Both the position numbers and the translations under genes were made by a program. The notes under the pieces are model-generated. The model was given only the letters and a program-made list of their open reading frames with translations. It ran no database searches and was not told the DNA's origin. Source: a bacterium (lineage in GTDB: Bacteria > Electryoneota > Electryoneia > Electryoneales > Electryoneaceae). From it: a DNA stretch of 64,000 nucleotides. The stretch covers positions 266,938-330,937 of the forward strand of contig JAHLLB010000001.1 of NCBI GenBank assembly GCA_020444425.1, written 5' to 3'. Shown here one piece after another: positions 6,769 through 58,148 of this stretch. Every line of letters starts with the position of its first letter. Position 1 is the stretch's first letter.

Positions 6769-6801
6769 TGATAGGATCAATCGAAATGTAACAGCCCGTG
6801 A

Positions 6802-8963: not shown

Positions 8964-8979
8964 TGTGACCTGTGTCACA
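8964..8979. promoter_or_regulatory. Perfect CRP/FNR-type palindrome TGTGA-N6-TCACA in the AT-rich promoter region upstream of the FG-GAP gene
   Basis: TGTGACCTGTGTCACA read directly. It matches the TGTGAnnnnnnTCACA consensus exactly. It sits in the 488-bp intergenic region (8638-9125), about 330 bp upstream of the 8637 start codon, in locally AT-rich sequence. Confidence 0.35.
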
Positions 8980-9125
8980 GCGGCTCCCGCCAAAGCGGGG
9001 TTGGGTTCTTACCCGTGTCGATATGGCCTGATTTCGGGCTCAATTTCGCAGGCGCTAGTAGTAACTACAACCGGCATTTAGTTGTTGTCAACGGACACGG
9101 GTGGAGCATGCGAGATTTTTGGGGT

Positions 9126-29924: not shown

Positions 29925-31943
29925 ATGAACCGACTGCTGACCGTGCTGCCCCTGCTGCTTGTTCTGCTGTGTGCTTTCGTTGCTGACGCGACTCAGCCGA
30001 TCGAGGAATACACCAACGAGGGGCTGCGTTGGCCGACCGACATTTCCCGTCGCATCACCAGCACCTACGGCGAATACCGCGCGGACCGTTTTCACGCCGG
30101 TCTCGACTTCAGCATCAACGGCAGCATCGGCGCCCCGGCCTACGCCATCGACAACGGGCACATCTCGCGGATCAAGACAACCTTCAACGGTTACGGCCGG
30201 GTCATCTACTTCACCCTCGACAGCGGCGACATCGCAGTCTACGCTCACCTTGACGGGTTCGAGGATCGGATTGAGGCGGTCGTCCGTCAGCAACAGTTGC
30301 ACCAGGGCCGCTACGAGATCGAGTATTGGCCGGGACCAGACGAGCTACGCTACGAAAAGGGTGACGTGGTCGCGTATTGCGGCGACACCGGCGCGGGTGC
30401 ACCGCACCTGCATTTTGAGTTGCGCACTCCGAGGAATGAACCGTACGACCCGGTGATGGCGGGCTTCTACTACAAGGATTCCTACGCACCGTATGTGCGG
30501 CGAGTGGCGATCCGTCCGCTCGACGGCGACAGCGAGGTCGAGGGCCGGATGGAATCGCATGTGTTCGATGTGCGGCAGGGAGTTGTCGCGCCGGTTCAGT
30601 TTTATGGCAAGGTCGGGCTCAGCGTGCAGGCGCACGATTTCCAGCAGGGCGGCTGGTCGCGGCTGGGTGTAAAAACGTTCGAGATGTACCTGGACGATGT
30701 CCTGTTGCACAAGACGGTGATGGACACCTTCCAATACTCGTTCAACCGTCATTCACGACTCGAATTCGACTACGAGCTGCGGCGCGACGGCTGGAACAAG
30801 TTCCGCCGCATGTACCCGGTTCCCGGCAACAAGCTGACGCTCTACGACGAGTCCCTCCCCGGCGGAATCATCGACAGCCGGGAGATTGGCGCCGGCATGC
30901 ACATGGTGCGTTTCCGCGTCACCGATCATCGCGGAAATGTCGGCGAGGCGACGTGGCCGATTGAAGCGTTGCACGAACCAGCGTTGCCCGCCGCCTCCAC
31001 CCCAGACAGCCTGCCGATGTTTGCATTGACGGAACGAGTTCAGATGGATCTCGACCTGCGTTTCACGTTGACCGGCACAACCGCTGAACTGTTCTTGACG
31101 GATCCGGACACGATTGAGGTTGCCCGTGCCTACGCAAACAGCCCGGCGTTTCTCACGCCGAAACGAATGGTCCCATTGCGGCGAGGATGGTACACGCGCA
31201 CGACGATGTCGCTGGACCAATCCGGTCTGACACCGGTTACGGTGCTGCTCGAGGACACGGCAGGTGTTGTGTATCAGGTTAGCGAGGAGAAACGGCTGAT
31301 CCCGTTGCGTGCGGGGAACAACCGTGACTTTCATCTGCCGGAGTATGGCCTCAGCATTCACTTCAACGGTTACGGGCTACCTTGGGACATGGTCGCCGAA
31401 TTGACAGTTGACACCACCGAAACCGGCACCGACGCGCCGGTCTTCACCATCACGCCAAACGACTACCCGTTCCTGACCACGTTCGAGATGACGTTCGATT
31501 CTCAGTCAGATCCTTTCCCACGTCACGCGTTGATGGTCTACCGCGAGCATGACGGGCAACGGTGGAACTACCTCAGCAACGAACGGGCGGCGAACGGGCT
31601 GCGTCTGATTGCGGATGTACTCAGCTTCGAATCGTTCTCGGTTGCTCAGGATACGATTCCGCCGGAGTTGTACAACCTTACACCCAACAACGGGGCCGCG
31701 TTCAAGACTCGCAAGCCGTTGCTGGCGGCCCGAATCCGGGACACGTTCAGCGGGCTCGATATGGCAGAAAGTGGCATCTGGCTGGACGGCGAAGAGGTGA
31801 TCTGGGTGTACGATCCGGACGCCGCCCGCATTGAATACCGGCCGTGGGAATCACTATCCGCCGGACGCCATGAGTGGCGGATTGTCGCGGCTGACAACGC
31901 TGGCAACCGCACCGAGTACACCCGAAGTTTTGTGATTGATTGA
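29925..31943 (+). CDS. Secreted M23-family metallopeptidase domain protein with large C-terminal extension
   Basis: Signal peptide MNRLLTVLPLLLVLLCAFVADA. M23 motifs HAGLDFS and GDTGAGAPHLHFELR (HxxxD ... HxH). Confidence 0.7.
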   Translation: MNRLLTVLPLLLVLLCAFVADATQPIEEYTNEGLRWPTDISRRITSTYGEYRADRFHAGLDFSINGSIGAPAYAIDNGHISRIKTTFNGYGRVIYFTLDSGDIAVYAHLDGFEDRIEAVVRQQQLHQGRYEIEYWPGPDELRYEKGDVVAYCGDTGAGAPHLHFELRTPRNEPYDPVMAGFYYKDSYAPYVRRVAIRPLDGDSEVEGRMESHVFDVRQGVVAPVQFYGKVGLSVQAHDFQQGGWSRLGVKTFEMYLDDVLLHKTVMDTFQYSFNRHSRLEFDYELRRDGWNKFRRMYPVPGNKLTLYDESLPGGIIDSREIGAGMHMVRFRVTDHRGNVGEATWPIEALHEPALPAASTPDSLPMFALTERVQMDLDLRFTLTGTTAELFLTDPDTIEVARAYANSPAFLTPKRMVPLRRGWYTRTTMSLDQSGLTPVTVLLEDTAGVVYQVSEEKRLIPLRAGNNRDFHLPEYGLSIHFNGYGLPWDMVAELTVDTTETGTDAPVFTITPNDYPFLTTFEMTFDSQSDPFPRHALMVYREHDGQRWNYLSNERAANGLRLIADVLSFESFSVAQDTIPPELYNLTPNNGAAFKTRKPLLAARIRDTFSGLDMAESGIWLDGEEVIWVYDPDAARIEYRPWESLSAGRHEWRIVAADNAGNRTEYTRSFVID

Positions 31944-37929: not shown

Positions 37930-40128
37930 GTGAACGTTTGGTCACCCCTATCTTCCCGCATGCCTTCAACCCCTGGAAACAAGAAAGCCGCGCCGCTCGA
38001 ACTGCCGGTCGCGTACCTGCGCGGGATCGGTCCACGCAAGGCCAGCGCATTCAAGCAGGTCGGCGTAACCACGCTCCGTGACCTGCTGTACTACGTTCCC
38101 CGCCGTTACATCGACCGCAGCACCGCGACGAAAATCGGGTCCATCCGTGGCGAGACCAAGGGTGAGGTCTCGATCATCGGCCGGATCACCGAAGTGCAGA
38201 TGGTCAAGGGCCGGGGTGGAACCAACCGTTACGAAGCCGCGCTCGACGACGGCACCGGCACGTTGCACCTGATCTGGTTCCGGCAGACCAACCGTGTCCG
38301 CAAATGGATCACCGAGGGCTTTTCGGCTGTCTTCTCGGGCAAGGTGAACATGTATGGCGGCATCCCGCAGATCGCGCACCCGGAGGTGATGTCGCTGTCC
38401 AAGGGCGAGGCGGTGGATCTGCAGCAAGGCAAGGGCCGTTGGATCGCTTTGTACCCGGGCGGGAAAGAGTTCGACAAAGTCGATCTCGACCAGCGCGCGT
38501 TGCGAAACCTGATGGACCGCGCGGTTGGCGAATATGTCCATTCGGTGCCGGAAATCTGGCCGCAGCAGTTGCTCGACCAGTTCAAGCTGCCGACGCTCAG
38601 CGACGGACTGCGCATGGTACACCGTCCGCACAACGCGAAGGAGCGTGACCTCGGTTGGAAACGGCTCAAGTTCGACGAGCTCGTGTTGTTCCAGTTGCTG
38701 TGGTCATGGTCACGACGGCGGAACCGTGACAAGGTGAAAGGGATCGCCTACCCGGAAGTCGGCGGGTTGACCCGCGCTCTGATCGAGGAAAAGCTGCCGT
38801 TCCAGTTGACGGATGCTCAGAAACGGGTCATGCGTGAGATATGGAACGACATGAAGCAGCCGCACCCGATGACACGTCTGTTGCAGGGCGATGTTGGCTC
38901 GGGCAAGACGGTGATTGCGTTGATCGCGATGTGTATCGCCGTCGAAAATGGGCACCAGGCGGCGTTAATGGCGCCGACCGAAATCCTCGCTGAACAGCAC
39001 TGGCTGACCAGTCGTAAATTCCTTGACAATCTTGACATCCACGTCGACCTGCTCACCGGCAGCATGTCGGAAAAGGAGCGGCGCGGCAAGTACGAGCGCC
39101 TGTCGCAAGGCCAGCCGGGAATTATCATCGGCACGCACGCCCTGATCCAGGACAAGGTGAAGTTGCCGAATCTCGGCCTCACCATCATTGACGAACAGCA
39201 CCGTTTCGGTGTCGCGCAACGATTGAAGCTGATGGAACCGGACCATGTCAAGGGCCGCAATTTCGACGGGTCGGATCTGCTGCGGCCGGACGTGCTGGTA
39301 ATGACCGCGACCCCCATCCCCCGCTCGCTGGCGTTGACGCTGTACGGCGACCTCGATGTCAGCCGGTTGGACGAAATGCCGCCGGGACGTGGAATGGTCA
39401 CGACCAAGGCCTACAACGCCGATTTCGAGCGGCAGAAAATTTATCAGCAGATTGCGGGACGAGTGCGCAAAGGCGACCGTGCCTATGTCATTTTCCCGCT
39501 CGTGGAACAATCGGAGAAGCTCGACCTCGCCGCTGCGGAAACCGGGCATGAGGAGTTGTCCGCCGGTGCCTTCAAAGGGCTGAAGGTCGGCCTGTTGCAC
39601 GGCCGGATGAAGATGGAGGAAAAGGCGGAGGCGATGCGCAAGTTCGCGTCCGGGGAAACGCCGGTGCTGGTCTCAACGACCGTTGTCGAAGTCGGTGTCG
39701 ATGTGCCGGAAGCGACGATCATGATCATCGAACACGCCGAGCGTTTCGGCCTTAGCCAGCTGCACCAGTTGCGTGGGCGAATCGGACGTGGCGGACGCGA
39801 TGGCTTCTGCTGCCTGTTCTTCTATCCCCCACTCGGCCGCACGGCGGAAGGGCGATTGTCGATCATGCAGAAGACGACGGACGGCTTTGTCATTGCCGAG
39901 GAAGATCTGCGGCTGCGCGGCATGGGTGACTTTTTCGGTGTCAAGCAGAGCGGTCTGCCACCGTTGCGTTTCTCGGATATCGTCGAGGATCAGGATCTGG
40001 TGCGTCTCACGCGCAAGGTCGCGGATGACCTGATCAACCAGAGTCCCGACCTGAGACAATTCCCTGCGCTCGAAAAGGAATTCCGCCGGACGGCGCTGGG
40101 GCGTGTTGGCTGGCTCGAGGCGGGGTGA
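37930..40128 (+). CDS. recG: ATP-dependent DNA helicase RecG
   Basis: Wedge-domain N-terminus. Walker A GDVGSGKTVIALIAM. DEQHRFGV (DEAH-box variant). Helicase C motifs (QLRGRIGRGG). Length is typical for RecG. Confidence 0.9.
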   Translation: MNVWSPLSSRMPSTPGNKKAAPLELPVAYLRGIGPRKASAFKQVGVTTLRDLLYYVPRRYIDRSTATKIGSIRGETKGEVSIIGRITEVQMVKGRGGTNRYEAALDDGTGTLHLIWFRQTNRVRKWITEGFSAVFSGKVNMYGGIPQIAHPEVMSLSKGEAVDLQQGKGRWIALYPGGKEFDKVDLDQRALRNLMDRAVGEYVHSVPEIWPQQLLDQFKLPTLSDGLRMVHRPHNAKERDLGWKRLKFDELVLFQLLWSWSRRRNRDKVKGIAYPEVGGLTRALIEEKLPFQLTDAQKRVMREIWNDMKQPHPMTRLLQGDVGSGKTVIALIAMCIAVENGHQAALMAPTEILAEQHWLTSRKFLDNLDIHVDLLTGSMSEKERRGKYERLSQGQPGIIIGTHALIQDKVKLPNLGLTIIDEQHRFGVAQRLKLMEPDHVKGRNFDGSDLLRPDVLVMTATPIPRSLALTLYGDLDVSRLDEMPPGRGMVTTKAYNADFERQKIYQQIAGRVRKGDRAYVIFPLVEQSEKLDLAAAETGHEELSAGAFKGLKVGLLHGRMKMEEKAEAMRKFASGETPVLVSTTVVEVGVDVPEATIMIIEHAERFGLSQLHQLRGRIGRGGRDGFCCLFFYPPLGRTAEGRLSIMQKTTDGFVIAEEDLRLRGMGDFFGVKQSGLPPLRFSDIVEDQDLVRLTRKVADDLINQSPDLRQFPALEKEFRRTALGRVGWLEAG

Positions 40129-40132
40129 TCTG

Positions 40133-40153
40133 AGTGGTGAGTGGTGAGTAAAA
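40133..40153. repeat. Heptamer tandem repeat (GAGTGGT)x3 immediately after the recG stop
   Basis: TGAGTGGTGAGTGGTGAGTAA. Confidence 0.7.
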
Positions 40154-40202
40154 CAACACATCCTCTAAACAACAAATCCACCAGTTTCGATATGGACGAA
40201 AT

Positions 40203-40234
40203 CCAAAGGTCGCGACAGATGTCGCGACCTTTGG
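40203..40234. terminator. Perfect 15-bp palindrome between the convergent recG and 40266..44039 genes; candidate bidirectional terminator or protein-binding site
   Basis: CCAAAGGTCGCGACA-GA-TGTCGCGACCTTTGG. No strong U-tract on either side. Confidence 0.4.
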
Positions 40235-40265
40235 AATGAAAGCTTGCCTGGTACCGGGCCTGTGG

Positions 40266-43200
40266 TTAGAAGTCCGCTCCGATGGAGAAATAGTATCTCG
40301 GTTTGGTGACGGTGTCCAGCTCGTTCTTCCACGCCATGTCCCATTTCAGCAAGAAAATGCCTAGATTGGCCCGGAATCCCCAGCCGTAGCCCATGTGGAA
40401 ATCGTCGAACTGGGCGTTCCCGTCGGGCGGGTCATCAATGAAGCGGAAGAAGTCGTCACTCCACACCGCGCCGGCGTCGAGGAAAATTGCGCCACGGATG
40501 TTGCTGAAGTAGAATGGTAGCGGCCACCCGAACAGCACCTGGCGAATCAATGGGAAGCGGAACTCGTTGTTCAGCAGCACGTACCGGTTGCCGTAATCCT
40601 CATAGTAATCCGCGCCACGCAACGGCGTCGCGAACCCGGAGAAGTAGATATCCTCGATGTCATCCCGGATGTACCCGCCCTCGAAGCGACGGTTGATCCA
40701 GTTGCTGACACCGCCGAGGAAGAAGGTCTGCGGGTGTTGGCCGAAACTGGCCGCACCAGACAGACGGAACGCGAAGCTGTAGTCCAGGCCAACGTGGTAA
40801 TACTTGCGCGCGTCCAGCGACACGGTCTGGAAATCCAGTCCCCATAAATCCTTGGACGTCTTCGGGTCTTCTCCGTCGAGGTCCGGACTGTAGGCAAATC
40901 CGATACGATACCGGTGTCCGTTCAGCGGACCAGTCCAGCCCCAGAGGGTGTTGTCGTGGACGTACGCAATCGACGGCAGGATGAAGTGCATCTTGCGGTC
41001 AGGGATATAGTCGTAGCGATCGTAATCCCAGCGGTCGCGGTCGATGTTGACCAGGCTGGCGGAGAAGTCGAACCGGTTGTAGCGTGAGAATGGGTAGCTC
41101 ACGGTTCCGGACGCACCCCAGTTGCGGTCACGGATATCGCCACCGTCGAAGAAGTAGACGTTGTGGAACGCGCCGCCACCGAAGTCCCACCGTTCCGGCA
41201 AGTGGTAGTAGTAGAGATTGAAGTTGCTGTTCTCGAAGTTGTAGTAGAGGTCGGTTCCAATGAAGATGACATGATTGCCGAGCACGTCGGATATCATGAT
41301 CTGGCCATACCCCTGCAACCCGAAGAACGCACTGTACCCCGCCGCCGCGGAGACAATATCCGGACTGAACTTGAGCTTGTACTTGCGTGGGATGAAACGC
41401 CCGTCCGCGCCAAGGATCGAATCCTGTTCGACGTCGGTGAGTTCGGTGTCGTTGTCGTCGCTTCCACTCCATCCCGCCGGATAGAAGATGAAATTGCGAT
41501 ACGTGCCCGAGGCACCTTCTTCTGCCGGACGGGTCCGCCGTCCAGACACCAGCCGCACCTTTTCCTCGTGCTCGGTGGTATCATTCACCGCCACCGTGGA
41601 GTCCAGCTGCGCTGCTTCGTGCGCGGTCAGGGACGTGTCAGTCACGGTCGAATCGGAAACGTCCAGGTTCAGGTCTTCCTCGTTGACAACGAGCTGGTCT
41701 TCGTCAAGGATGACGGTGCCGTTGCCTATCGCGAACGCCGTATCAAACGGGGATTTCTCAAGCAAGGTTTCGGGTTCGACAGCGAGAGTGTCCATGCTGG
41801 TGCCAACAGAATCGCCAATGGCTTCATGCCCGAGCGCCTCGAGGATTTCCTGTTCTTCCGGACTGCCCGGTTCAACCGGTTTGCCGCCTGTGAGTTGATC
41901 AAGCCACGGGTTTCCATTCGGACCGTTGAGCCCGTTCTCCGCCAGCTCGGTCATCGCCTTCATCCGCGCTTCGAGGTCGTCGGAATCCTTGATGATGCCG
42001 CGCACCTTCTGCTGATAATACGTCAGGCTCGGTTTCTTGCGGCGATCTTCATCGAACGGATTCTTGTACAGGTACAGATCGTACCCAGCGTTGAAGAAAC
42101 TGGCGAAGGCAACACTTCCGTTGTCCGACCAACTCGGCGTGAACACACCCGTCAGGATGTCTGTCGTCGCCCAGGTCTCGTCCGTGTTCAGATCATGCAT
42201 GTACAGGTTGTACGCACCGCTGCGGTCGGAGACGAAGCTGATGACCCCTTCCCTTGAGGTAAACGATGGCGATCGATCCTCATAAACGTCGTTGGTCAGC
42301 CGGGTAATCGTGTTCGTGTCAAGGTTGATCATGTAGACGTCGTGCTGCTCGTAGTTCTGTTCCCACAGGTCCAGAACTGTCCCGCTTGCTGACAGCTTGT
42401 CGCCACGGTCGGAAATAAACAGCACGTCACCATTCGGCCCCCACTCAGGGTCATAGTCGCTGTAACGGTCGTCGGTTACCTTGGCAAGGCTTTCCACATC
42501 GCCGATGTTGAACACGTACAGGTCCGTTTGACCGTCCGCATAGGCGGAGAACAGGATGCGTGACCCATCCGGCGACCAGCTCGGGCTGAACAGGCCGTCG
42601 AGACCGAATTTGTACTCGCCGGTGATTTCGCCGTCGTCAACGTTCAGCGTGTACAGCGCATCCTCGCCGCCGTCTTCCGCGACGAATGCGATGGACCGTC
42701 CATCGGGCGACCAGTCAATCCACGGCCGCAGCCATAGCAACTGCTCAAACAGGTACACCCCGCCGCCGCCACTGACCACCTTCTCCTCGACTTCACCGGT
42801 GACCGTGTTGACCAGGTACATGCTCATGTAGTCGTCCTTGTCGGAGAGCATGATCAATCGATCACCCTCGGGCGACAAGGCCGGAGACGTGTTGACGAAG
42901 TTGTACCACTCTTCATGGTCAGTGATCCGGACCGCAAAATCTTCCGGGGATTCAAAGTGTGCCGCTGTTGGCCAGATCTGGCGCTTCAGATGCTTGTGCC
43001 AGCGTTCGGACAGCTCTTCCAGGTCGTACCCGAGCACATCCTTGACCGCTGTGCCGAAATTCCTCCGGCTGCGGACCTTGCGCAGCAGTTCGCCGACTTT
43101 TTCCGGTCCGTAACGTTCCTCGAGGAAATACAGCAGCGACTGGCCACCCTTGTAGATGAAGTAGCCCTGCAGGTAATCCAGCGGCATCAGGTAATCGTTG

Positions 43201-44039
43201 ATGATCGCGTCGCGGAGGTACATGTCCGCTTCATTTCCCCAGCCGTAGCGGCTTTCGTACTCGGCAATACCTTCAATGAACCACAGCGGTAGCGGCAGAC
43301 GGCTGATCCCGGTGAGGATGCTCTGCACCCCTTCCCCATAGAGCATGCGCAGCATGACCGCGTGCGTCAGCTCATGGTGAATGACGTGCCGGAACATCGA
43401 ATTCGATCCCTGGAATGGGATCACGACACGGTTCTTGAGGAATTCGGTGAAGCCGCCGGTGGATTCGCTGGGTGTACCGCCGCTGACATTGTTGTTCTGG
43501 AACGAGTTGTGACTTGGGAAAACGATAATCGAGATCCGGCCCTCGAGGGTGTAGTTCCACGAATCCTCGATTGCGACCAGCGCTTCTTCCGCTTCCCAGC
43601 CGGTAAACTCGCCCGCTTCGAAATATTCCTGCGGGTAGTAGATATCGAAGTGTTCGGTCTTGAGGAAGTACCACGTGAAATCGCGGTAATTGACCTTGTT
43701 CTGGCCGAAGTACTGCGCGTTCGCAACGGGAATATGCAGCAGCAGCGCGAACAACAGGAGGCCGGCCAACCAGCCGAAGGTGCGTCGTCGAGAGTGCCCG
43801 GCACCAAAGGTCAGGGGGTCAGTGCGATGAAGAGAGCGTCTGTGCGTCAACGGGTGACGCAACTTTGGCGCGAGCATAATGCCACTCGTGTCGGTAAATG
43901 AAGAACCCATTGCAGATCGTATACTCGCTGGTGAGCGTTGAAGATCCAACCCCGTAAGGTAGGCGCTGGAGTTCGTGGAAAACAGCCCACGTTGAACAAT
44001 GCAGGCAGCCTTCGTGTTTGCCGCGAGATCTCCGGTCAC
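40266..44039 (-). CDS. Large multidomain envelope protein: HExxH metallopeptidase-like domain, then PD40/TolB-like beta-propeller repeats, then a C-terminal Omp85-like (bacterial surface antigen) beta-barrel
   Basis: 1257 aa. HExxH in FRHVIHHELTHAVMLRML. PD40-like repeats (WSPDGRSIAFVAEDGG, SWSPDGSRILFSAYADGQTDLYVFN, PEWGPNGDVLFISDRGD). C-terminal barrel ends YYFSIGADF (terminal Phe). The GTG start at 44039 overlaps the stop of the upstream gene (GTGA). A hydrophobic signal-like segment (WLAGLLLFALLLHIPVANAQ) lies about 85 aa in, so the true start is uncertain. An alternative ATG is at 43877. Confidence 0.55.
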   Translation of the reverse strand: MTGDLAANTKAACIVQRGLFSTNSSAYLTGLDLQRSPASIRSAMGSSFTDTSGIMLAPKLRHPLTHRRSLHRTDPLTFGAGHSRRRTFGWLAGLLLFALLLHIPVANAQYFGQNKVNYRDFTWYFLKTEHFDIYYPQEYFEAGEFTGWEAEEALVAIEDSWNYTLEGRISIIVFPSHNSFQNNNVSGGTPSESTGGFTEFLKNRVVIPFQGSNSMFRHVIHHELTHAVMLRMLYGEGVQSILTGISRLPLPLWFIEGIAEYESRYGWGNEADMYLRDAIINDYLMPLDYLQGYFIYKGGQSLLYFLEERYGPEKVGELLRKVRSRRNFGTAVKDVLGYDLEELSERWHKHLKRQIWPTAAHFESPEDFAVRITDHEEWYNFVNTSPALSPEGDRLIMLSDKDDYMSMYLVNTVTGEVEEKVVSGGGGVYLFEQLLWLRPWIDWSPDGRSIAFVAEDGGEDALYTLNVDDGEITGEYKFGLDGLFSPSWSPDGSRILFSAYADGQTDLYVFNIGDVESLAKVTDDRYSDYDPEWGPNGDVLFISDRGDKLSASGTVLDLWEQNYEQHDVYMINLDTNTITRLTNDVYEDRSPSFTSREGVISFVSDRSGAYNLYMHDLNTDETWATTDILTGVFTPSWSDNGSVAFASFFNAGYDLYLYKNPFDEDRRKKPSLTYYQQKVRGIIKDSDDLEARMKAMTELAENGLNGPNGNPWLDQLTGGKPVEPGSPEEQEILEALGHEAIGDSVGTSMDTLAVEPETLLEKSPFDTAFAIGNGTVILDEDQLVVNEEDLNLDVSDSTVTDTSLTAHEAAQLDSTVAVNDTTEHEEKVRLVSGRRTRPAEEGASGTYRNFIFYPAGWSGSDDNDTELTDVEQDSILGADGRFIPRKYKLKFSPDIVSAAAGYSAFFGLQGYGQIMISDVLGNHVIFIGTDLYYNFENSNFNLYYYHLPERWDFGGGAFHNVYFFDGGDIRDRNWGASGTVSYPFSRYNRFDFSASLVNIDRDRWDYDRYDYIPDRKMHFILPSIAYVHDNTLWGWTGPLNGHRYRIGFAYSPDLDGEDPKTSKDLWGLDFQTVSLDARKYYHVGLDYSFAFRLSGAASFGQHPQTFFLGGVSNWINRRFEGGYIRDDIEDIYFSGFATPLRGADYYEDYGNRYVLLNNEFRFPLIRQVLFGWPLPFYFSNIRGAIFLDAGAVWSDDFFRFIDDPPDGNAQFDDFHMGYGWGFRANLGIFLLKWDMAWKNELDTVTKPRYYFSIGADF

Positions 44040-45745
44040 TTGCCGCCGCTCCAGTCACTTCGCCGCTGCTCCGAGACACGAAGCATCTCGTTCACCCGGT
44101 GCCGGACGGTGTGCCCCTCGAGCACAGCTTTACGCATCCTTTCCCCGATCTCCGCTCGCAGACTCGGCTTCGCAATCAGTTCGCTGACCTTCGTCTGCAA
44201 ATCAGCGGCGGACGTGAACGCAATCCTGTCCGCCAGCTCTGCACCGAACAATTCCGGCAACGCCGCGAGATCATCGTTGAGCACCGCTCGGCCGCACGCT
44301 CCCACATCAAACGGCCGCTGGTTCGGATGGGTCTGCATCTGCAGGTTTGTCAACGAGATGTGCACGGCATCGGTTCGGTACAGTTTCGGCAAATCGGTGT
44401 AGAAATCCAGCGGTTCGCGCAGCTCGATGCGTTCGTCCAGCAGTCCTTCCCAGCCCATGCCGAAGACCGTCAGGTGATTGGACGCGAGAGAATTCAACAG
44501 GTTTACCCGGTACGCCAGGTTCGCCTGCTGTACCGCATAGGCCGGGAGCCGCCGCTTGGCTTCCAGATCCAAAGTTTTCTCAGGATCGAGCGTTCCGAGC
44601 AGCTCGTCAACGCGTTCGTGTGCTGGCGGTTGGCGTGTCCGCAGGATCTCCGTTTCCAGTGCACGCGCCGCCTTGCCCGCAATTTCGGACTTGTCCAGCG
44701 CGGCAAAGAAGCCGAACGTGCTCGCAAACCTCGGGCTACCGACGAACACGACACGTCCCGTCAGCTCGGCGAATCCGTCACCTGGTTTGAACAGGGTCTC
44801 GTCCGTGGCGAGTGGTAATGGGTGCGCGTTCGGAAAGCCGGCGTCCCGCCAACCGTCGATCCCGTTGCGGTCCCAGCAGAAGCCGATGCGTTGCCGGCCA
44901 GCGCCGTGGATTTCATCCGGATGCAACAGGAAGCGCGGATCATCCAGCAGCCACGTTGCCCACGCTACCCCCGCCTGCTCACACGCCTCCGGCAGCAGGC
45001 CGATTTCGTCCGATCCACGATTGTTCGTGGACAGCACCAGGTCAGGCGTATGGGTGTTAAGCAAGTCCAACGCCGACGTGGCGTTGAGTCCGGTCAATGC
45101 AGTCTGTTGAATGTGTGTCACATGGATCGAGCGGCGCTGCAGTTCGCTTAGCAGTTCACGTTCATACAGCCCCCCACTGCCGACAAACAGCACCCGGCGG
45201 ATGGCGGGATCGGTCGCTCGAGCTGGTTCTGCTGTATGATGGCGGGCGACGTGCACGTCCAGCGCGCCGTAGAAGCCGGGAAACGCCTTCGTCTCGCGCG
45301 GATGCCGAACGATGACCGCGTCCGGATAGCGGTCCAGAAACGGCTGCACGTGGTCCCGCCACACACGCGCCGGGTCGTCATCCGCGACGAGAGACATCTC
45401 TTCGGAGGCGTCTGCGAAACGGCGGTTGATGCGTTTCACGTTCGCGTCAAGTAGCGCCCGCGAACGAACCACCGCCAGCGCCGGCGTGTAGCCCTCTTCG
45501 AGTGCGGTCCGTGTGAAGTATCCGCTTCCGGATCCCAGCAACAGCAACGGCGTTCCCGGCTTACATCCGGCCTTCAGCAAGGTGCGAGTTGCTTCTCCAC
45601 GGGGCTCGTAGGGCGAGTCGATGGCTTTCAGACCGGTCGGCGTTTCAAGGCTATAGGCTGTCCACAAGCCGCCGCGCGCGAGTTCTTCGCTTACGTGTTC
45701 GACCAGCGATTCCGGCAGATTGTCGCTCACTCGCAGAGTCTTCAT
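44036..45745 (-). CDS. CgeB-like / DUF3880-type glycosyltransferase-family protein
   Basis: 569 aa. The C-terminal part (TVFGMGWEGLLD...VGACGRAVLNDDLAALPELFG...AADLQTKVSELIAKPSLRAEIGERMRK) resembles the CgeB/Glyco_trans_1_2 fold. Start ATG at 45745 overlaps the upstream stop (ATGA). Confidence 0.45.
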   Translation of the reverse strand: MKTLRVSDNLPESLVEHVSEELARGGLWTAYSLETPTGLKAIDSPYEPRGEATRTLLKAGCKPGTPLLLLGSGSGYFTRTALEEGYTPALAVVRSRALLDANVKRINRRFADASEEMSLVADDDPARVWRDHVQPFLDRYPDAVIVRHPRETKAFPGFYGALDVHVARHHTAEPARATDPAIRRVLFVGSGGLYERELLSELQRRSIHVTHIQQTALTGLNATSALDLLNTHTPDLVLSTNNRGSDEIGLLPEACEQAGVAWATWLLDDPRFLLHPDEIHGAGRQRIGFCWDRNGIDGWRDAGFPNAHPLPLATDETLFKPGDGFAELTGRVVFVGSPRFASTFGFFAALDKSEIAGKAARALETEILRTRQPPAHERVDELLGTLDPEKTLDLEAKRRLPAYAVQQANLAYRVNLLNSLASNHLTVFGMGWEGLLDERIELREPLDFYTDLPKLYRTDAVHISLTNLQMQTHPNQRPFDVGACGRAVLNDDLAALPELFGAELADRIAFTSAADLQTKVSELIAKPSLRAEIGERMRKAVLEGHTVRHRVNEMLRVSEQRRSDWSGGK

Positions 45746-46536
45746 ACAGCCATTCCGGGCAGGGGTTCATCGGGGACGGAAATCGTCTCGCGGTCGTGGT
45801 GTTTCTGCAGGAACCATTCCATGTCCGTCTGCCACTTGCTGTCGGAGGCGGACGCACCGCCGGAATCATGCAGCACCAGCAGCGGAAGGGTCCAATTCTT
45901 TAATCCGGCATTGTGCGCACTGAGGCAGAAGTCCATGTCGTAGAAATGGAAATGGTCTGGATCGCCGCTGCGGGGCGGTATGTCGCGCACCGTCCCGGCG
46001 CGTGCCGCCATCAGCAGACCATCGACCACGAGCACACGGGACCACCCGCCGTACGCGTTGACGCGCAATCCTTCCGGACGGCGATGCAGCACCATGCCAC
46101 TGAGCTTCTCATGCTGCCACCAGCCGCGTCCCGGGGTCATTTCGCAGCTTCCGGCAACTCCGGCGAATCCGAAATCCGGCTGGCTGGCCAGTTTACGCAG
46201 GATCACCCACCACGCCGGTCCCTGGGGTGTGGGTTCGATCCAGGTTTTCAGCGGTGCCTGCAGTTGAGCCGGCAGGCCGTTGATCGTCTCGAGGGTTGCG
46301 GGAACAATATCCTGATGCACGAACAGCATCAGGCTGTCGCGGCTGGGTATCATGCGCGCCGCGTTGTGGTAAGCTACTCGGAGTGAGTCCACCTGTCCCA
46401 GCCGCATCGGGTTAACGGTCGCGTACGGTTCGAGCACGTCACGGAATCCAGCTTCCATGCGCTCCAACCGCTCGGAGTCGTCCCCGGTGCTGACAAGGTA
46501 CAGGGTATCGGGATGTTGCGGAGTCGATTTGTTCAC
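45742..46536 (-). CDS. Hypothetical protein, possibly a GT-A-like glycosyltransferase
   Basis: 264 aa, GTG start. No firm motif. Operonic with the flanking genes. Confidence 0.35.
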   Translation of the reverse strand: MNKSTPQHPDTLYLVSTGDDSERLERMEAGFRDVLEPYATVNPMRLGQVDSLRVAYHNAARMIPSRDSLMLFVHQDIVPATLETINGLPAQLQAPLKTWIEPTPQGPAWWVILRKLASQPDFGFAGVAGSCEMTPGRGWWQHEKLSGMVLHRRPEGLRVNAYGGWSRVLVVDGLLMAARAGTVRDIPPRSGDPDHFHFYDMDFCLSAHNAGLKNWTLPLLVLHDSGGASASDSKWQTDMEWFLQKHHDRETISVPDEPLPGMAV

Positions 46537-46614
46537 GCCGGAAAGTACAATCCCGTGCGCAGCATCGCCTCGTCAACACCCGGTGCAGATGGATTGCGGA
46601 GAACGCCCGGGCGC

Positions 46615-47064
46615 TCAGTGATGGTGATGGCCACCCTTGCACAGCGACCCTCGCGGATCCGCGACAAACTCGCCCATGCGGTACTTTTCGACGATCGCCT
46701 CGACCGTGCGTTCCCGGGTGTACATCACGTCGATGCCGGCTGCACAGAAGTCCTGTTGCAGGCGCGGTCCCATCCCCAACGCGATAACCACATCGACACC
46801 GCGCAGGTTGTCGATCATCGTCGCATGGCTGTGATGGTGGCCGTTACCTTGCCCCTGGCCCTGGCCAAAACCCTGTCCGAGTTGCTGGTTGCCGCCGTGC
46901 TCCTGCCCGTGGGCATGCTGCTGGTGATGATGCGGGCTGTCATGTTTTACGAAGCGGGGTTCTGAAACTTGCGAATCGTTGACCTCGTAGACGAGGAACC
47001 CGGCCGCACGTCCCGTGTGGGGAATCAGGCCGTGGTTCTCATCAACGGGTATCGCGATGGTCAT
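46615..47064 (-). CDS. NifX/NifB-like dinitrogenase FeMo-cofactor-binding-domain family protein, with a His/Gln/Gly-rich insert and a natural His4 tail
   Basis: MTIAIPVDENHGLIPHTGRAAGFLVYEV...VDVVIALGMGPRLQQDFCAAGIDV matches the Nitro_FeMo-Co fold. Insert HDSPHHHQQHAHGQEHGGNQQLGQGFGQGQGQGNGHHHSHA. C-terminus GGHHHH*. Confidence 0.55.
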   Translation of the reverse strand: MTIAIPVDENHGLIPHTGRAAGFLVYEVNDSQVSEPRFVKHDSPHHHQQHAHGQEHGGNQQLGQGFGQGQGQGNGHHHSHATMIDNLRGVDVVIALGMGPRLQQDFCAAGIDVMYTRERTVEAIVEKYRMGEFVADPRGSLCKGGHHHH

Positions 47065-47466
47065 CTCACCATCTCCTTGATGTTAATCCTGGCGTAATGG
47101 ATGCTCTCACTGCCGGCTGATGTGCCGAATTTCAGCTATGCCGGTTTGTAGAGAGAAACGGCACCGCAACGTAACCGTCATGGGAGCCCCCCAACCACCA
47201 CGCGATTCGCGCCACGATGCCATCTGCTTGTGTTTTAGCAATCTCTGCACCAAAAACAGCCAGTGTCTCGAGGCACAGAGATCTCGTTAAATACCAGCCA
47301 ACTAACCGGCCTCCAACTCTCCTGACTGGTTGACTGATCGTACCAGACTTGAAACAGTCCTCTGAAACAGTTGCATTTCTGCACCATACTCACTATTTTC
47401 TTCTCGAACAACGTAGACCGAGTTTGCCACACCGGCCGACTCCCGAACCCGATCCTGGATCCCCCC

Positions 47467-48855
47467 ATGAGCCAGTCTCATCCTTCTGCCCGGCCTCACC
47501 CGTCTGATGCAGAGATTGTAAACGCTCTTCTCGCCAGTGTTGCCTGCGGTGTCTTGATTCTCGATCACGAGCTACGAATCGTGCGCATCAACGATAGCGC
47601 CAGCGCGATTACCGGTGTTTCGTTGGAAACCGCGCGGGGCATGCGATGCTTTGAGATGCTCCGTCCGCAGGGCCGTTCAAAACGCTGCCTCGTCGATGAT
47701 TGCCTGACATTGAACAAAGCACATGATGAGCAGACCATGACCATCCTCGGTCGTGACGACATCGAATTGACGGTGCGTGTTGCCTGCCGGCTGATTCGTG
47801 ACGCGGAACGTGAGTTACTTGGAGTGGTGGTGACTTTCGGCGACCTGTCGACGGTACACGACCTGCGCCTCCGCATCGACCACCGAGCGTTGTTTCACGG
47901 CATGGTCTCGCAGGACCACATGATGCGCTCGATCTTCGAGGTGTTGCCACGCATGGCGCAGAGCAACAGTACGGTGCTGATTCGTGGCGAAACCGGCACC
48001 GGCAAGGACCTGATAGCCAGGGCCATCCACGACCTTTCGGAACGGTCGGCAAAACCTTTTGTCTCGGTCAATACCGCCGCTCTGCCGGACACGTTGCTCG
48101 AGGCGGAATTGTTTGGTCACACCAAGGGCGCGTTTACGGATGCGAAAGCTGACCGCGCTGGACGTATCGCGGTCGCCGAGGGCGGTACGCTGTTCCTGGA
48201 CGAAATCGGCGACATCAGCCCGATGATGCAGGTTAAGCTTCTCCGTTTCCTGCAGGAGCGAAAGTACGAACCGTTGGGATCGAGCCGGTCACGAAAGGCG
48301 GATGTGCGCGTGATCGCGGCGACCAACCGCAACCTCGAGCAGATGATGACCACCGGGCAGTTTCGTGAGGATTTCTTTTACCGGCTGAACGTGCTCACCA
48401 TCGACCTGCCGCCGTTGCGGGATCGGGTCAACGACATCCCATTGCTGGTCAGCCATTTTCTGCACGCGCTGGATTTGATCGAAGGTCACATCCCGCTGGA
48501 AGTTTCCACCGACGCGATGCAGGCGCTGGTAGCCTACGAGTATCCCGGCAACGTGCGCGAGTTGGAAAATATCATTGAACGGTCGGCGATTCTGTCGCGT
48601 GACCGGGTCCTCAACCTGCACGACCTGCCGGAGCATATGCGGTCGAATGGAAACGCGGCGACCAAGACGAGTGATTCGGACAAATTGTCCAACGGTTCTC
48701 CGGTCAAAGGGTTGACGCCAATGGAGCAGGCGGAACGCGAAGCGATCCGTTCGATGCTGCAACACAACCACGGCAACAAATTGCGCACGGCGGAAGCGTT
48801 GTCGATTTCCCGCACCACCTTGTGGCGCAAGTTGAAGAAGTACTCGCTCTTGTAG
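47467..48855 (+). CDS. Sigma-54-dependent transcriptional activator (PAS sensor, AAA+ sigma54-interaction domain, Fis-type HTH)
   Basis: The likely start is ATG at 47467 (MSQSHPSARP...). Walker A GETGTGKDLIARAIH. ESELFGH-type ELFGHTKGAFTDA. GAFTGA-equivalent. C-terminal HTH RTAEALSISRTTLWRKLKKY. Confidence 0.85.
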   Translation: MSQSHPSARPHPSDAEIVNALLASVACGVLILDHELRIVRINDSASAITGVSLETARGMRCFEMLRPQGRSKRCLVDDCLTLNKAHDEQTMTILGRDDIELTVRVACRLIRDAERELLGVVVTFGDLSTVHDLRLRIDHRALFHGMVSQDHMMRSIFEVLPRMAQSNSTVLIRGETGTGKDLIARAIHDLSERSAKPFVSVNTAALPDTLLEAELFGHTKGAFTDAKADRAGRIAVAEGGTLFLDEIGDISPMMQVKLLRFLQERKYEPLGSSRSRKADVRVIAATNRNLEQMMTTGQFREDFFYRLNVLTIDLPPLRDRVNDIPLLVSHFLHALDLIEGHIPLEVSTDAMQALVAYEYPGNVRELENIIERSAILSRDRVLNLHDLPEHMRSNGNAATKTSDSDKLSNGSPVKGLTPMEQAEREAIRSMLQHNHGNKLRTAEALSISRTTLWRKLKKYSLL

Positions 48856-49008
48856 ACCTTGAGTGAGATGGCTCGTGGACTCCCGCAGGCGTGCGAGTGC
48901 TGTATCCAAGTATATTGTCGCACACGTTTTTTGGCTGATGTGGATCACCTGGAGGACGGTTTGAGCGAAGACTTGCTGAGAACGCGAAATGTCTCATCTC
49001 GCAAGCAC

Positions 49009-50280
49009 ATGGACTTGTGCTGGTGTCTCGCGGTTGTTTTCGGGTTGGCGTTGTTCACTCCCGGAATCAGCCGGGCGTTCTTCGAAGACCTGTATGTGAG
49101 CGGGTTTGTCAGCCAGGGCTACTACAAGACTTCCGAGTACGATTTCATTCTCTCGAACAGCACCAAAGGCACGTCGGAGTTTAACGAAGCCGCGATATCG
49201 GTGCAGGCGAATCCGATCGAACGGCTGCGCATTGGCATCCAGTTGATCGCCACAGACGCAGGCGACATGGGCAACAACGAGATCCGTGTGGATTGGGCGT
49301 TCGGTGACTATCGCTGGCGTGACTGGCTCGGCTTCCGAGCTGGCAAGATCAAGATGCAGATGGGATTCTATAACATCGGGCGTGACATCGACATGTTACG
49401 TACGTCGATCTTCCTCCCGCAGAGTGTGTATTCGGAAAACTGGCGTGACTTCGCGATGGCGCAGGAAGGGATTAGTTTCTACGGCAATTCCGAAGCTGGC
49501 CCGGTGGGATCGGTTGAGTACGAAGCTTATGCCGGTGCATTGAACGTACCCGATCCCGACCACAGCTATTGGCAGCGGGCGTTTTCGTCGAGTGCGGAGT
49601 TCGATCTGGCAGTATTCAATGCCATGTTCGGCGGGGACACCCTGAGTTACGACCTGCAACAGATTGTCGGCATCAACCCGGCCTTCCCGTGGATTGCGGG
49701 CGGGTCGATGATCTGGAACACTCCGGTCGAAGGATTGCGTTTCGGTGCCTCCCTGATCACCGGGGAATACGAAATGACCTCAAAGGCGCTGGCATACGTG
49801 AACATTGTAGATCCGAACACCGGTGCCTTGAAGTCCAGCACCCTCGAAAGCCTGGATGTTCGTTGGGCTGCACGCTACCTGTTGTCCTTCTTCTCGGTGG
49901 AATACAGTTGGCGGCAGTTCATCCTGGCCGCCGAAACGCTACGGTTCGAGCAGGAGCATGAAATCAATCAAGGCACCTACATCATGCTGACCTGGGAACC
50001 GACGCCGGTATATTCGCTCAGCGGTTATGTCTCGGAATTCATTCCGGACATCGACAACCGTGACGGCAAGAACTTCGAGGATCCGCTGCGCAAGGATTTT
50101 ACCGCATGGCAACGTGAAGCGGTCCTGTCGGGCCGGGTAAACCTCACCAGCAACTGGCTGGTCAAGGCGGAGTTTCACGCCGTTGACGGCATCGGGCAGA
50201 TCTTCTACACGCCTGAGGTACTTGAGTCCAATTCTCGCTACTGGACAATGTTCGCGCTCAAGACAACGTTCCACTTTTAA
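49009..50280 (+). CDS. Hypothetical outer-membrane beta-barrel (porin-like) protein
   Basis: ORF 48859..50280. The likely start is ATG at 49009 (MDLCWCLAVVFGLALFTPGISRA). Alternating amphipathic beta-strand composition. C-terminal ...FALKTTFHF* carries the aromatic terminal residue typical of outer-membrane proteins. Confidence 0.4.
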   Translation: MDLCWCLAVVFGLALFTPGISRAFFEDLYVSGFVSQGYYKTSEYDFILSNSTKGTSEFNEAAISVQANPIERLRIGIQLIATDAGDMGNNEIRVDWAFGDYRWRDWLGFRAGKIKMQMGFYNIGRDIDMLRTSIFLPQSVYSENWRDFAMAQEGISFYGNSEAGPVGSVEYEAYAGALNVPDPDHSYWQRAFSSSAEFDLAVFNAMFGGDTLSYDLQQIVGINPAFPWIAGGSMIWNTPVEGLRFGASLITGEYEMTSKALAYVNIVDPNTGALKSSTLESLDVRWAARYLLSFFSVEYSWRQFILAAETLRFEQEHEINQGTYIMLTWEPTPVYSLSGYVSEFIPDIDNRDGKNFEDPLRKDFTAWQREAVLSGRVNLTSNWLVKAEFHAVDGIGQIFYTPEVLESNSRYWTMFALKTTFHF

Positions 50281-54995: not shown

Positions 54996-55157
54996 GGTGA
55001 TTGACGAAGCGTGGAGCGCTCTCTGGCGCTCTTGCAGGTATCCAGGATTCCTCCCTCCCGCGCATCCCGTCCTATACTCACATTTATCTTTTTCCGGCCG
55101 GTTCCAACGGCACCTCAGGGTTCACCACGATCGGTTTCGATTGCGGCGGGAGAACGC

Positions 55158-56480
55158 ATGAAGCCATTGCTCAGATCTGTTTCGATTGGACTAGCGGTTA
55201 TCCTCTTAGCGGGTCTCGCTCTTTGTCCAGCGCAAGTCCGGGCTGAAGACGCGGATACCATTTACCAACCATCCATGACACACGCGGACAGCGTCAAAGC
55301 GTGGCAGGAAGCGGTTGAAAACGACAATGCGCTCGATGTCACCGGTGACGTCATCGGGGAAGTGGTGTTTTTCCCGTTGCGGGTCGTATTCACCGGTGTA
55401 CGCGAAGGCGCGCGGATCGTCAGCGAAGAGCAATTGATCGCGAAGGTGGACGATCTCCTCTCGTCAGATGATGGCACCCGCCGTGTCGTGCCCATCGCCT
55501 CGCCGACCACCGGTCTCGGCGCGAAGTTCAAGTACAAGCCGGATCCCACCATCAAGGCGAACATCGCTCTGCTCGGCGCGTGGTGGACCTACGGCCGTCA
55601 AACCTACCGTCTGCACGCGGAAAAGTGGCCGCTGCTGCCGAATGTGACCGGTCACCTCGCCGGTGAGTATCACCTCTACCCCGATGAACGGTACTACGGC
55701 ATCGGGATGGCGTCGAAGAAGTCCGACGAGGTGTTCTACCGGCACGAGGCAACGTTCGCGGAACTCGGTCTCGGGTTTAACCTGCATCGCTGGCTGGAGC
55801 TGACCGCGCACGGCGACTACCGTGCGAACAATCTCTACAACAGCGTACTGAAACCGACTGTCGACGTTGACACCTACGGCAGTGTGCAGAACCTGTCGCC
55901 CTATTCGGGCCGCATCGACTTGGTCAGCACCGAACTGGCGCTCGAATTCAACACGTCGATCAACCCCGCTCGTCCAATGAACGGGTTCGTCACCAAAGTC
56001 TCCGGCGGGTATCACAACCAGGTGGGTGACGATGTTTTCGGCTACTGGGACTCGCGCGTCCTGATCGGGAAATACTTTCACATCATGTACGAACGGGTGC
56101 TGTATTTCGACATCGCCGGGCAATTTACGGAACCGCTGAATGATCGCGTGATTCCGTTCTTCGAGCTTCCGGAGCTGGGTGGCCGGGAAACGTTACGCGG
56201 GTTCAAACGCGGACGCTACAGCGGCGAACACACGGTGCAGGGCACGGTCGAATATCGCCTGCCGATCCGTGACATCTGGTCCGCGTCGGGCTTCGATTTC
56301 GCCTTCTTTGCCGACTGGGGCAAGGTGGTGCAGGATGATGTCAGCGACTGGGACATGGATTCAATGCAGATCGGGTATGGATTCAGCTTGCAAACGTGGA
56401 CGCTGGCCGGTGCGGCAGCGCGTCTGGATGTTGGCTTCAGCCGTGAAGGCACGCGGCTTTACTTCACCATGGGGTTGTGA
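55158..56480 (+). CDS. Outer-membrane protein, probable Omp85-family (bacterial surface antigen) beta-barrel
   Basis: ORF 55011..56480. The likely start is ATG at 55158 (MKPLLRSVSIGLAVILLAGLALCPAQVRA). The C-terminal third (ELGGRETLRGFKRGRYSGEHTVQGTVEYRLPI...DFAFFADWG...LYFTMGL*) resembles the Bac_surface_Ag barrel. Confidence 0.5.
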   Translation: MKPLLRSVSIGLAVILLAGLALCPAQVRAEDADTIYQPSMTHADSVKAWQEAVENDNALDVTGDVIGEVVFFPLRVVFTGVREGARIVSEEQLIAKVDDLLSSDDGTRRVVPIASPTTGLGAKFKYKPDPTIKANIALLGAWWTYGRQTYRLHAEKWPLLPNVTGHLAGEYHLYPDERYYGIGMASKKSDEVFYRHEATFAELGLGFNLHRWLELTAHGDYRANNLYNSVLKPTVDVDTYGSVQNLSPYSGRIDLVSTELALEFNTSINPARPMNGFVTKVSGGYHNQVGDDVFGYWDSRVLIGKYFHIMYERVLYFDIAGQFTEPLNDRVIPFFELPELGGRETLRGFKRGRYSGEHTVQGTVEYRLPIRDIWSASGFDFAFFADWGKVVQDDVSDWDMDSMQIGYGFSLQTWTLAGAAARLDVGFSREGTRLYFTMGL

Positions 56481-58147: not shown

Positions 58148-58148
58148 A

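Follow-up and report, generated by a model that had tools for sequence, protein, structure and literature searches.

A WD40-like Omp85 protein with predicted zinc-peptidase and propeller domains, and its locus, in an Electryoneaceae bacterium

Introduction

The Omp85/TpsB superfamily has been divided into ten subfamilies, one of which, named 'WD40-like', carries PF07676 together with PF01103 (Heinz & Lithgow 2014, Front Microbiol 5:370, PMC4104836). A gene for a protein of this kind lies on the minus strand of a 64,000-nucleotide stretch of an Electryoneaceae genome (contig JAHLLB010000001.1, positions 266,938 to 330,937); the whole stretch is referred to as the window, and the product, which joins a peptidase-like domain, a beta-propeller and an Omp85-type barrel, as the fusion protein. 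The Omp85 superfamily is central to the building of the outer membrane, and its WD40-like branch is still listed as uncharacterised in recent papers.

Members of the WD40-like subfamily typically lack POTRA domains (PMC4104836). Their Phyre2 matches, given in Table S3 of the same study, fall on M1 aminopeptidases or tricorn factor F3 (structures 1z5h/4kxd), on TolB (2ivz/2w8b) and on BamA/TamA (4k3b/4c00). The hosts include Caldithrix abyssi (H1XQ58), Rhodothermus marinus (D0MEQ5), Chlorobaculum (B3QRX6), myxobacteria and others (PMC4104836). The subfamily has since been summarised as having 'divergent WD40 and peptidase domains' (PMC11358297) and described as having 'not been well characterized' (PMC11116518).

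By its sequence and predicted fold, the fusion protein is a member of this subfamily: its layout consists of a PD40/TolB propeller, an Omp85 barrel and an aminopeptidase-like domain. An earlier reading of the window, made from the sequence alone, had implied that the architecture was novel. It is not, having been catalogued in 2014 (PMC4104836) and mentioned since in PMC11116518, PMC11358297 and PMC12204202. Among the best 80 loci of relatives are those of a Caldithrix sp. metagenome-assembled genome (MAG; L037) and of Calditrichaeota/Calditrichota MAGs (L018, L031, L086), and co-membership with the published WD40-like sequences is therefore likely. Taken together, sequence, model and analogy make it on balance probable that the fusion protein is a periplasmic zinc protease tethered to the outer membrane, of the WD40-like Omp85 class, that serves envelope upkeep.

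Domain architecture of the fusion protein

The features of the gene are as follows, with residues numbered along the maximal open reading frame (ORF).

40266-43877, minus strand: gene for the peptidase-propeller-Omp85 fusion protein, likely ATG start to TGA stop, 1203 amino acids (aa); the maximal ORF extends to GTG 44039 (1257 aa)
43716-43877, minus strand: predicted signal peptide, residues 55-108; hydrophobic core WLAGLLLFALLL; predicted cleavage between ANA and QY
42960-43673, minus strand: gluzincin zinc-metallopeptidase domain, residues ~123-360; Pfam Peptidase_MA_2, 2.2e-8
42066-42896, minus strand: six-bladed TolB/PD40-type beta-propeller, residues ~382-658; Pfam PD40, 1.2e-14
41370-42065, minus strand: propeller-barrel spacer, residues 659-890; short helices, then an acidic disordered linker
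40269-41369, minus strand: Omp85-type 16-strand beta-barrel, residues ~891-1257; PF01103 and model

The sequence-only reading had proposed an HExxH metallopeptidase-like module, TolB-type PD40 blades, a long acidic linker and a C-terminal, 16-strand-like barrel of the surface-antigen type ending in Phe, and it had set the protein apart from a standard BamA or TamA. This structural reading held in every respect that could be tested, and neither of the two outcomes that it had named as refuting was seen. An AlphaFold model was built for residues 86-1257 with a 61-sequence alignment (mean predicted local distance difference test score, pLDDT, 77; predicted template modelling score, pTM, 0.73), and the peptidase was modelled separately (residues 106-385; pLDDT 81).

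The peptidase domain, a mixture of helices and sheet in the model, matches Peptidase_MA_2 with 34.6 bits (cut-off 32.4), over profile positions 2-200 of 201. Its HELTH motif occupies residues 222-226 (43362-43376). H222, E223, H226, E256 and E260 are invariant in the 61 sequences, in which the homologs are 43-78% identical, and the two downstream glutamates are candidate third zinc ligands. Foldseek searches with the separate model returned the M9 collagenases ColG/ColT/ColH, M1 aminopeptidases, AM0627 and an M61 enzyme, the best matches being the catalytic domains of M9 collagenases and M1 aminopeptidases (E-values from 1.6e-5 upwards; query template modelling (TM) score ~0.55, probability 1.0). 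These fold matches and the invariant residues place the HExxH motif in a gluzincin fold, and the HExxH+E site looks catalytically competent.

The propeller consists, in the model, of six four-stranded blades with pLDDT mostly above 90. TolB from the PDB is its top match both by sequence (1.2e-13) and by fold (2.5e-12, Foldseek), and a profile of the full-length protein recovered only propeller proteins among PDB sequences. The NCBIfam model for TolB, TIGR02800, matches partially, over the propeller part only, with 110.2 bits against a cut-off of 343.15. The database name 'Protein TolB' carried by some homologs is a mis-annotation. OMP-TolB-like proteins are often automatically annotated as TolB and have been discussed as its possible ancestors (PMC12204202).

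When the C-terminal 378 residues are searched alone, they match PF01103 at 5.4e-11 (43 bits, cut-off 24), over profile positions 18-325 of 325. The match is missing from the full-length scan, and the barrels of 7 of 14 homologs also match the family. The prediction shows 16 long antiparallel strands at ~891-1254 (model residues 806-1169), with block-mean pLDDT mostly 75-95. Against the PDB, Foldseek returned BamA barrels (8e-12, target TM ~0.6) and TamA (4c00). Loop 6, where the superfamily motif reads (V/I)RG(F/Y), carries PLRGADYY at 1139-1146, with invariant R and G; an Ala follows the RG in place of Phe/Tyr, and a Tyr-Tyr pair stands two residues further on. The partner motif, (F/G)xDxG in a C-terminal strand, is present as FLDAG at 1186-1190 with an invariant D, and the protein ends in SIGADF, with a final Phe.

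No POTRA domain was found with PF07244 at E <= 0.1, and the region before the barrel is modelled as helices followed by disorder. Identity with BamA or TamL was rejected, in view of the missing POTRA and of scores far under the NCBIfam cut-offs (BamA TIGR03303, 23.5 bits against 297.15; TamL NF052279, 29.8 against 400).

The barrel invites a reading in which it would itself be an active part in outer-membrane protein assembly or translocation, like BamA, TamA and FhaC, with the propeller as a BamB-like dock and the peptidase processing clients. The retained loop-6 RG and FxDxG motifs and the resemblance to BamA/TamA barrels argue for such a role, as do two neighbouring genes, one for a POTRA-Omp85 protein, found directly upstream in 5 distinct loci, and one for a BamD/YfiO-like TPR protein, found in 7. 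The 'BamA-BamB fusion' hypothesis of Heinz & Lithgow (PMC4104836) is of this kind. The lack of POTRA by Pfam and in the model speaks against it, the propeller is of the six-bladed TolB type and not of the eight-bladed BamB type, and the barrel of PlpD, another Omp85 protein with an N-terminal enzyme, serves mainly as a scaffold (PMC11116518). An assembly role is considered unlikely; it is compatible with the tethered periplasmic protease favoured here, and both could hold.

A second, short Omp85 gene is present in the window at 55011-56480 on the plus strand (489 aa; PF01103, 2.8e-15). It is followed by a 556-aa ORF (56477-58147, plus strand) and a Metallophos PF00149 protein (58053-59387, plus strand), a gene set reminiscent of the 'Metallo-Omp85' subfamily, with the parts encoded by separate genes.

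Start codon, signal peptide and translational coupling

The translation start had been regarded in the sequence-only reading as uncertain, as a signal-like segment lies about 85 residues into the longest frame. The hydrophobic segment spans residues 86-108 of the maximal ORF and is followed by a conserved junction, with ANA before and QYFGQNKV after the predicted cleavage site; the mature N-terminus QYFGQNKVNY is kept among homologs. The likely start is ATG 43877, residue 55 (M55) of the maximal ORF. The identical NCBI protein, KQI52_01225, named 'hypothetical protein [bacterium]', has 1203 aa and so begins at M55. Homologs start ~20-60 residues ahead of the conserved A-QYFGQNKVNY junction.

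Initiation at ATG 43877 gives a 36-residue basic n-region with 8 K/R, 5 H and 1 D/E. In L001, L007 and L008 a proximal ATG stands directly before the hydrophobic core, and the window and L019 have CGC at that place (43775-43784, minus strand). The next usable start upstream of the CGC is the conserved ATG 43877, so the lineage of the window and L019 must use the upstream ATG, which makes the n-region unusually long.

Start/stop overlaps had been claimed for the last three genes of the cluster: ATGA at 45742-45745 and GTGA at 44036-44039. Both tetranucleotides are found in the sequence, and the claim stands in part. The ATGA joins the stop of the first of two glycosyltransferase-like genes (GT2_5) to the start of the second (GT1_2); it recurs as an identical 4-nucleotide (nt) overlap in L001 and is a real, conserved coupling. 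The GTGA would couple the fusion gene to GT1_2 only with GTG 44039 as the start, and it is most likely an artefact of the longest-ORF rule. In L001, a locus with 77% identity, the called GT1_2 and fusion genes are separated by 224 nt.

43878-44035, minus strand: GT1_2-fusion spacer, 158 nt, conserved as non-coding DNA

The DNA from the GT1_2 stop to the signal peptide was aligned for the window and four relatives with 75-95% protein identity. The spacer contains strongly conserved blocks in the five loci, for example CTGTTTTCCACGAACTCCAGCGCCTACCTTAC, which sit in differing frames among the loci and would yield unrelated peptides. Conservation with shifted frames is the pattern of a non-coding element and not of coding sequence. 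The spacer could supply the fusion gene with a second promoter or with an RNA leader. It has no Rfam match and no terminator of note, and a scan of 39800-47450 for terminators and sigma-70 promoters gave sites no more numerous than in shuffled sequence.

The linker and its candidate glycosylation sites

Between propeller and barrel, a few helices at 674-735 precede a 134-residue segment, 739-872, with pLDDT below 50 (model residues 654-787). The segment is acidic, with 30 D/E against 7 K/R. The propeller-barrel spacer measures 146-235 aa in the 20 homologs closest to the fusion protein; in the remaining 41 it has 73-103 aa, and it is acidic in both groups.

Linker residues 743-875 contain seven D-[ST]-[AILVMT] sequons, with their S/T at 744, 751, 767, 797, 814, 821 and 874, against 1.1 expected, and one more occurs in the remaining 947 residues; expectations come from composition-preserving shuffles. 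Across the 20 long-linker homologs, whose sequences are related and hence not independent, 100 sequons were counted against 20.7 expected (about five-fold; z = 18.6; largest shuffle 33). They are scattered over 37 alignment columns, and six control motifs in the linker had observed/expected ratios of 0.4-1.8. The enrichment is common to homologs of Calditrichota-like and KSB1-like lineages.

The D-S/T-hydrophobic motif is the sequon of Bacteroidota general O-glycosylation, which acts on non-cytoplasmic proteins, mostly at periplasm-facing segments; the system is regarded as essentially limited to that phylum, with the motif enriched mainly there (PMC8550257, PMC12871550). Given the specificity of the sequon signal, O-glycosylation of the linker is a reasonable hypothesis.

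Other proteins of the window differ in their sequon content. The motif is abundant in a TPR protein with a signal peptide, which has 10 sequons where 2.4 are expected, and in an M23 peptidase, which has 5 where 2.2 are expected (1501-3615 and 29925-31943, plus strand). Cytoplasmic proteins contain about as many as expected (17 against 18), and five cargo proteins of the type IX secretion system (T9SS; 4866-18406, minus strand) are poor in it (6 against 18.6). These counts hint at a compartment-specific glycosylation pattern in the organism, the sample being too small for a conclusion at genome level. The five cargo proteins are consecutive, large and secreted, with C-terminal T9SS sorting domains. 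Four of them contain FG-GAP repeats, and two of those four also Peptidase_C10 (streptopain-like) domains, one with an Inhibitor_I69 prodomain. The sorting-domain proteins place the organism in the Fibrobacterota-Chlorobiota-Bacteroidota (FCB) group.

Proposed topology and mechanism

In the favoured scheme, a Sec signal peptide would be cleaved at the predicted site between ANA and QY, and the C-terminal 16-strand barrel, of the BamA/TamA type by sequence and model, would insert into the outer membrane. The strand number of an Omp85 barrel is even, and its two ends are periplasmic. The same side is indicated by PlpD, whose patatin domain was shown experimentally to stay periplasmic, with the barrel as a scaffold (PMC11116518); on both grounds the N-terminal enzyme module would remain in the periplasm. 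There the HExxH+E zinc peptidase, if active as its residues suggest, would pack beside the six-bladed propeller, which would most likely select or gate substrates. The long acidic disordered linker may let the module sweep the space beneath the outer membrane, and O-glycosylation of the linker, suggested by its sequon density, would also shield it from proteolysis. The most likely job of such a protein would be the degradation or processing of envelope proteins at the outer membrane, in quality control or remodelling.

A passenger followed by a long flexible linker and a barrel at the C-terminus also recalls autotransporters, and the module could instead be carried outward by its own barrel and linker, in the manner of type V secretion, and digest external proteins for nutrition. 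Export of this kind was the first proposal for PlpD (PMC4104836), and the organism is rich in secreted proteases, with Peptidase_C10 proteins bearing T9SS sorting domains in the window. However, the PlpD enzyme is periplasmic, as are known Omp85 N-terminal domains, and export of folded domains through an Omp85 pore has been judged energetically unfavourable (PMC11116518). The passenger is modelled as a well-folded module of ~550 residues with a closed propeller, and sequons of the Bacteroidota type are glycosylated mostly on periplasm-facing segments (PMC12871550). A self-exported surface protease is accordingly held to be distinctly improbable.

Several points weigh against the reading of a tethered periplasmic protease with a glycosylated linker. 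The Peptidase_MA_2 score barely exceeds its cut-off (34.6 against 32.4 bits). A profile hidden Markov model of the barrel found no matches among PDB sequences even at E = 10, so that the identity of the barrel comes from Pfam and fold comparison. As the linker is disordered, the AlphaFold model does not place the enzyme module confidently against the barrel. Gene neighbours vary among loci, with no partner conserved across the 84 loci surveyed below, and literature searches gave no functional study of any WD40-like Omp85 member. The sequon excess may be a composition bias of the linker that escapes mononucleotide-level shuffles, and the window's secreted proteins overall show no excess (33 observed against 30.8 expected). 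The topology, activity and substrates of the fusion protein are all inferred.

Distribution and gene neighbourhood

The fusion is widespread. A protein search with the full sequence gave 3946 matches, the close ones being 1000-1210 aa long with the same string of Pfam domains. The names they carry include 'Protein TolB', 'PD40 domain-containing protein', 'peptidase MA family metallohydrolase' or 'BamA/TamA family outer membrane protein'. The barrel alone matches 1522 clusters at 50% identity with E <= 1e-3, and 217 with E <= 1e-30; it is mostly C-terminal in full-length members of ~950-1180 aa. In species-representative genomes, 564 stretches encode relatives of the fusion, and of the best 80 of the 564, those that bear a label at phylum level come mostly from Calditrichota/Calditrichaeota, KSB1, LCP-89 and Zhuqueibacterota MAGs.

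The neighbourhood was surveyed by clustering the ORFs called up to 6 kb away from the fusion gene at 84 non-duplicate loci, together with targeted tblastn searches. The recurrent neighbours are as follows.

Immediately downstream, same strand, median distance 112 nt: GWxTD-domain protein (PF20094), ~430 aa, the commonest neighbour, 29 of 84 loci
Immediately downstream: MlaE/MlaF, 12-13 loci, other than those with GWxTD
Upstream: extracytoplasmic function (ECF) sigma factor, 12 loci, and zf-HC2 anti-sigma factor, 9 loci
Upstream: BamD/YfiO-like TPR protein, 7 loci
Directly upstream: POTRA-Omp85 gene, 5 distinct loci
Upstream: pair of GT2_5 and GT1_2 genes, 10 loci, in the window's clade only, with fusion proteins 44-95% identical

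These neighbours point to the cell envelope generally and not to glycans specifically. The MlaE, GWxTD and BamD-like neighbours have no counterpart in the window. In L002 and L006 the POTRA-Omp85 partners are homologs of one another; the second Omp85 gene of the window (55011-56480) was considered as their ortholog and rejected, as the similarity is weak and at barrel level only.

The gene cluster and its predicted regulation

As the sequence-only reading had described, four minus-strand ORFs follow one another, at 46615-47064, 45742-46536, 44036-45745 and 40266-44039. Its assignments of the first three products, as His-rich NifX-like, glycosyltransferase-like and CgeB-like, agree with the Pfam matches.

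46615-47064, minus strand: His-rich Nitro_FeMo-Co (NifX/NifB-C-like) small protein, 149 aa; Pfam 1.9e-14
45742-46536, minus strand: Glyco_tranf_2_5 family protein (GT2_5), 264 aa from the maximal GTG start; Pfam 3.9e-10
44036-45745, minus strand: CgeB-like glycosyltransferase (GT1_2), 569 aa; C-terminal Glyco_trans_1_2, Pfam 2.6e-20, and a weak DUF3880 match

The Nitro_FeMo-Co protein has several His runs and a C-terminal HHHH in its translation, and its gene is preceded by an AAGGAG ribosome-binding site. Of the 10 loci with the glycosyltransferase pair, only 4 have a NifX-like gene in this position. PDB sequence searches with both glycosyltransferases gave zero matches. Judged by eye, no signal peptide is evident at the start of either, and neither the ORFs nor Pfam revealed a flippase or oligosaccharyltransferase gene within 40266-47064.

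The sequence-only reading had suggested a machine for processing surface glycans, in which the fusion protein would act on a glycan or glycoprotein made by the co-encoded glycosyltransferases, or would be their dedicated substrate. The order GT2_5, GT1_2, fusion gene recurs in 10 loci (44-95% identity) with a shared sigma-54 promoter and activator, and the linker is rich in O-glycosylation sequons. Yet the glycosyltransferase pair is absent at the other ~74 loci, among them those of homologs that have long linkers rich in sequons, such as P0021/L003. The enzyme domain belongs with the peptidases and not with glycosidases, the conserved 158-nt non-coding spacer separates the glycosyltransferase and fusion genes, and the lack of evident signal peptides and of a flippase or oligosaccharyltransferase gene also tells against such a machine. 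The suggestion was not upheld, and a glycan-linked function of this kind is thought very improbable. The link to glycosyltransferases is clade-specific, and one of the two claimed couplings is probably spurious.

Control of the cluster is predicted to involve sigma-54.

47237-47252, minus strand: predicted sigma-54 type -24/-12 promoter TGGTGCAGAGATTGCT, upstream of the cluster
47371-48855, plus strand: divergent PAS/sigma-54-interaction/HTH_8 enhancer-binding protein; translation probably begins downstream of the maximal TTG

The strict pattern TGG-N8-TTGC has a single occurrence upstream of the first gene, in the window as in each of the 7 relatives that carry the activator (L001, position 6939; L004, 4706; L007, 6351; L008, 6048; L009, 5329; L010, 5132; L019, 6533), with ~0.04 occurrences expected per 700 nt. 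The divergent activator gene is kept in L001, L004, L007-L010 and L019. Candidate activator-binding repeats, ACTGTTTCA, occur twice at ~47350-47372. The promoter and the divergent PAS-sigma-54 activator suggest that expression of the cluster is probably signal-dependent.

The leader (~47150-47215, minus strand) carries an invariant run of at least 6 G, ~45 nt past the promoter, in all eight loci; in the window, L019 and L001 the run lies inside a block of ~60 nt that is nearly identical. Nothing credible was found for the leader in Rfam, RNAalifold gave no consensus structure for the eight leaders, and the peptide of a small ORF that follows the G-tract in the leader is not conserved among the eight loci.

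The surroundings of the cluster are unremarkable. On one side are genes for valyl-tRNA synthetase (ValRS), a DUF4139 protein and RecG; on the other, the divergent activator gene and that of a 473-aa protein are joined by genes for histidine kinases and a PBP-like protein. The gene for the 473-aa protein (48859-50280, plus strand) has no Pfam match and directly follows the activator gene; the same position is kept in L001 (55%) and L019 (58%).

Significance

The locus does not represent a new class. It offers handles on a known one. The catalytic site is intact, a cleavage site and a topology are predicted, the linker is probably glycosylated, and the conserved sigma-54 promoter and activator are a possible way to switch the fusion gene on. 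The analysis adds a corrected start codon, the conserved sigma-54 region, an unbiased neighbour survey and the sequon-rich linker, and it would correct the common mis-annotation of WD40-like Omp85 proteins as 'TolB' or 'BamA/TamA'. A broader and tentative picture, rather unlikely to hold in full, is that WD40-like Omp85 proteins would be self-contained, propeller-gated outer-membrane zinc proteases for envelope quality control in the FCB group and related phyla, with a heavily O-glycosylated tether in the Calditrichota-like clade and a dedicated sigma-54/PAS switch shared there with two glycosyltransferases. If the sequon enrichment reflects real modification, motif-driven O-glycosylation, now described as 'Bacteroidota-only', would reach sister phyla.

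Comparison with known systems

The peptidase domain shares with M9 collagenases, M1 aminopeptidases and Peptidase_MA_2 the HExxH motif and a Glu ~30 residues past the second His; in ColG the downstream Glu lies 28 residues after it. The fold match to the M9 and M1 catalytic domains (query TM ~0.55, probability 1.0) is accompanied by 12-16% identity, and the fusion protein lacks the collagenase accessory domains and the M1 N- and C-terminal domains. With TolB of the Tol-Pal system it has in common the six-bladed PD40 propeller, for which TolB is the best match in sequence and fold. Unlike TolB, it is predicted to be membrane-anchored and to bear a peptidase, and no match to the N-terminal domain of TolB was found.

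The likeness to BamA, TamA and TamL consists of the 16-strand barrel, the loop-6 RG, the FxDxG motif and the C-terminal aromatic residue, at a TM of ~0.6. The fusion protein differs in lacking POTRA domains and in scoring below the family cut-offs, although some databases name it BamA/TamA.

Two systems resemble it in arrangement. PlpD of Pseudomonas aeruginosa also has an enzyme N-terminal to an Omp85 barrel; there the enzyme is a lipase, with one POTRA domain and a homodimeric state, whereas the fusion protein combines a predicted zinc peptidase and a propeller with a long disordered linker. BepA of Escherichia coli, reportedly an M48 metalloprotease that docks on BAM in outer-membrane protein quality control, is a functional analogy for which no homology is claimed: a periplasmic zinc protease at an Omp85 machine. 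It differs as a member of M48, in having a TPR domain instead of a propeller and in being a separate soluble protein.

The closest relatives are the WD40-like Omp85 proteins catalogued in 2014, with which the fusion protein shares the three-part architecture, the lack of POTRA domains and hosts among FCB-group and environmental diderm bacteria. The window's clade is distinguished from them by a linker of 146-235 aa, against ~80, that is rich in sequons, and by the sigma-54 activator and two glycosyltransferases that accompany the gene.

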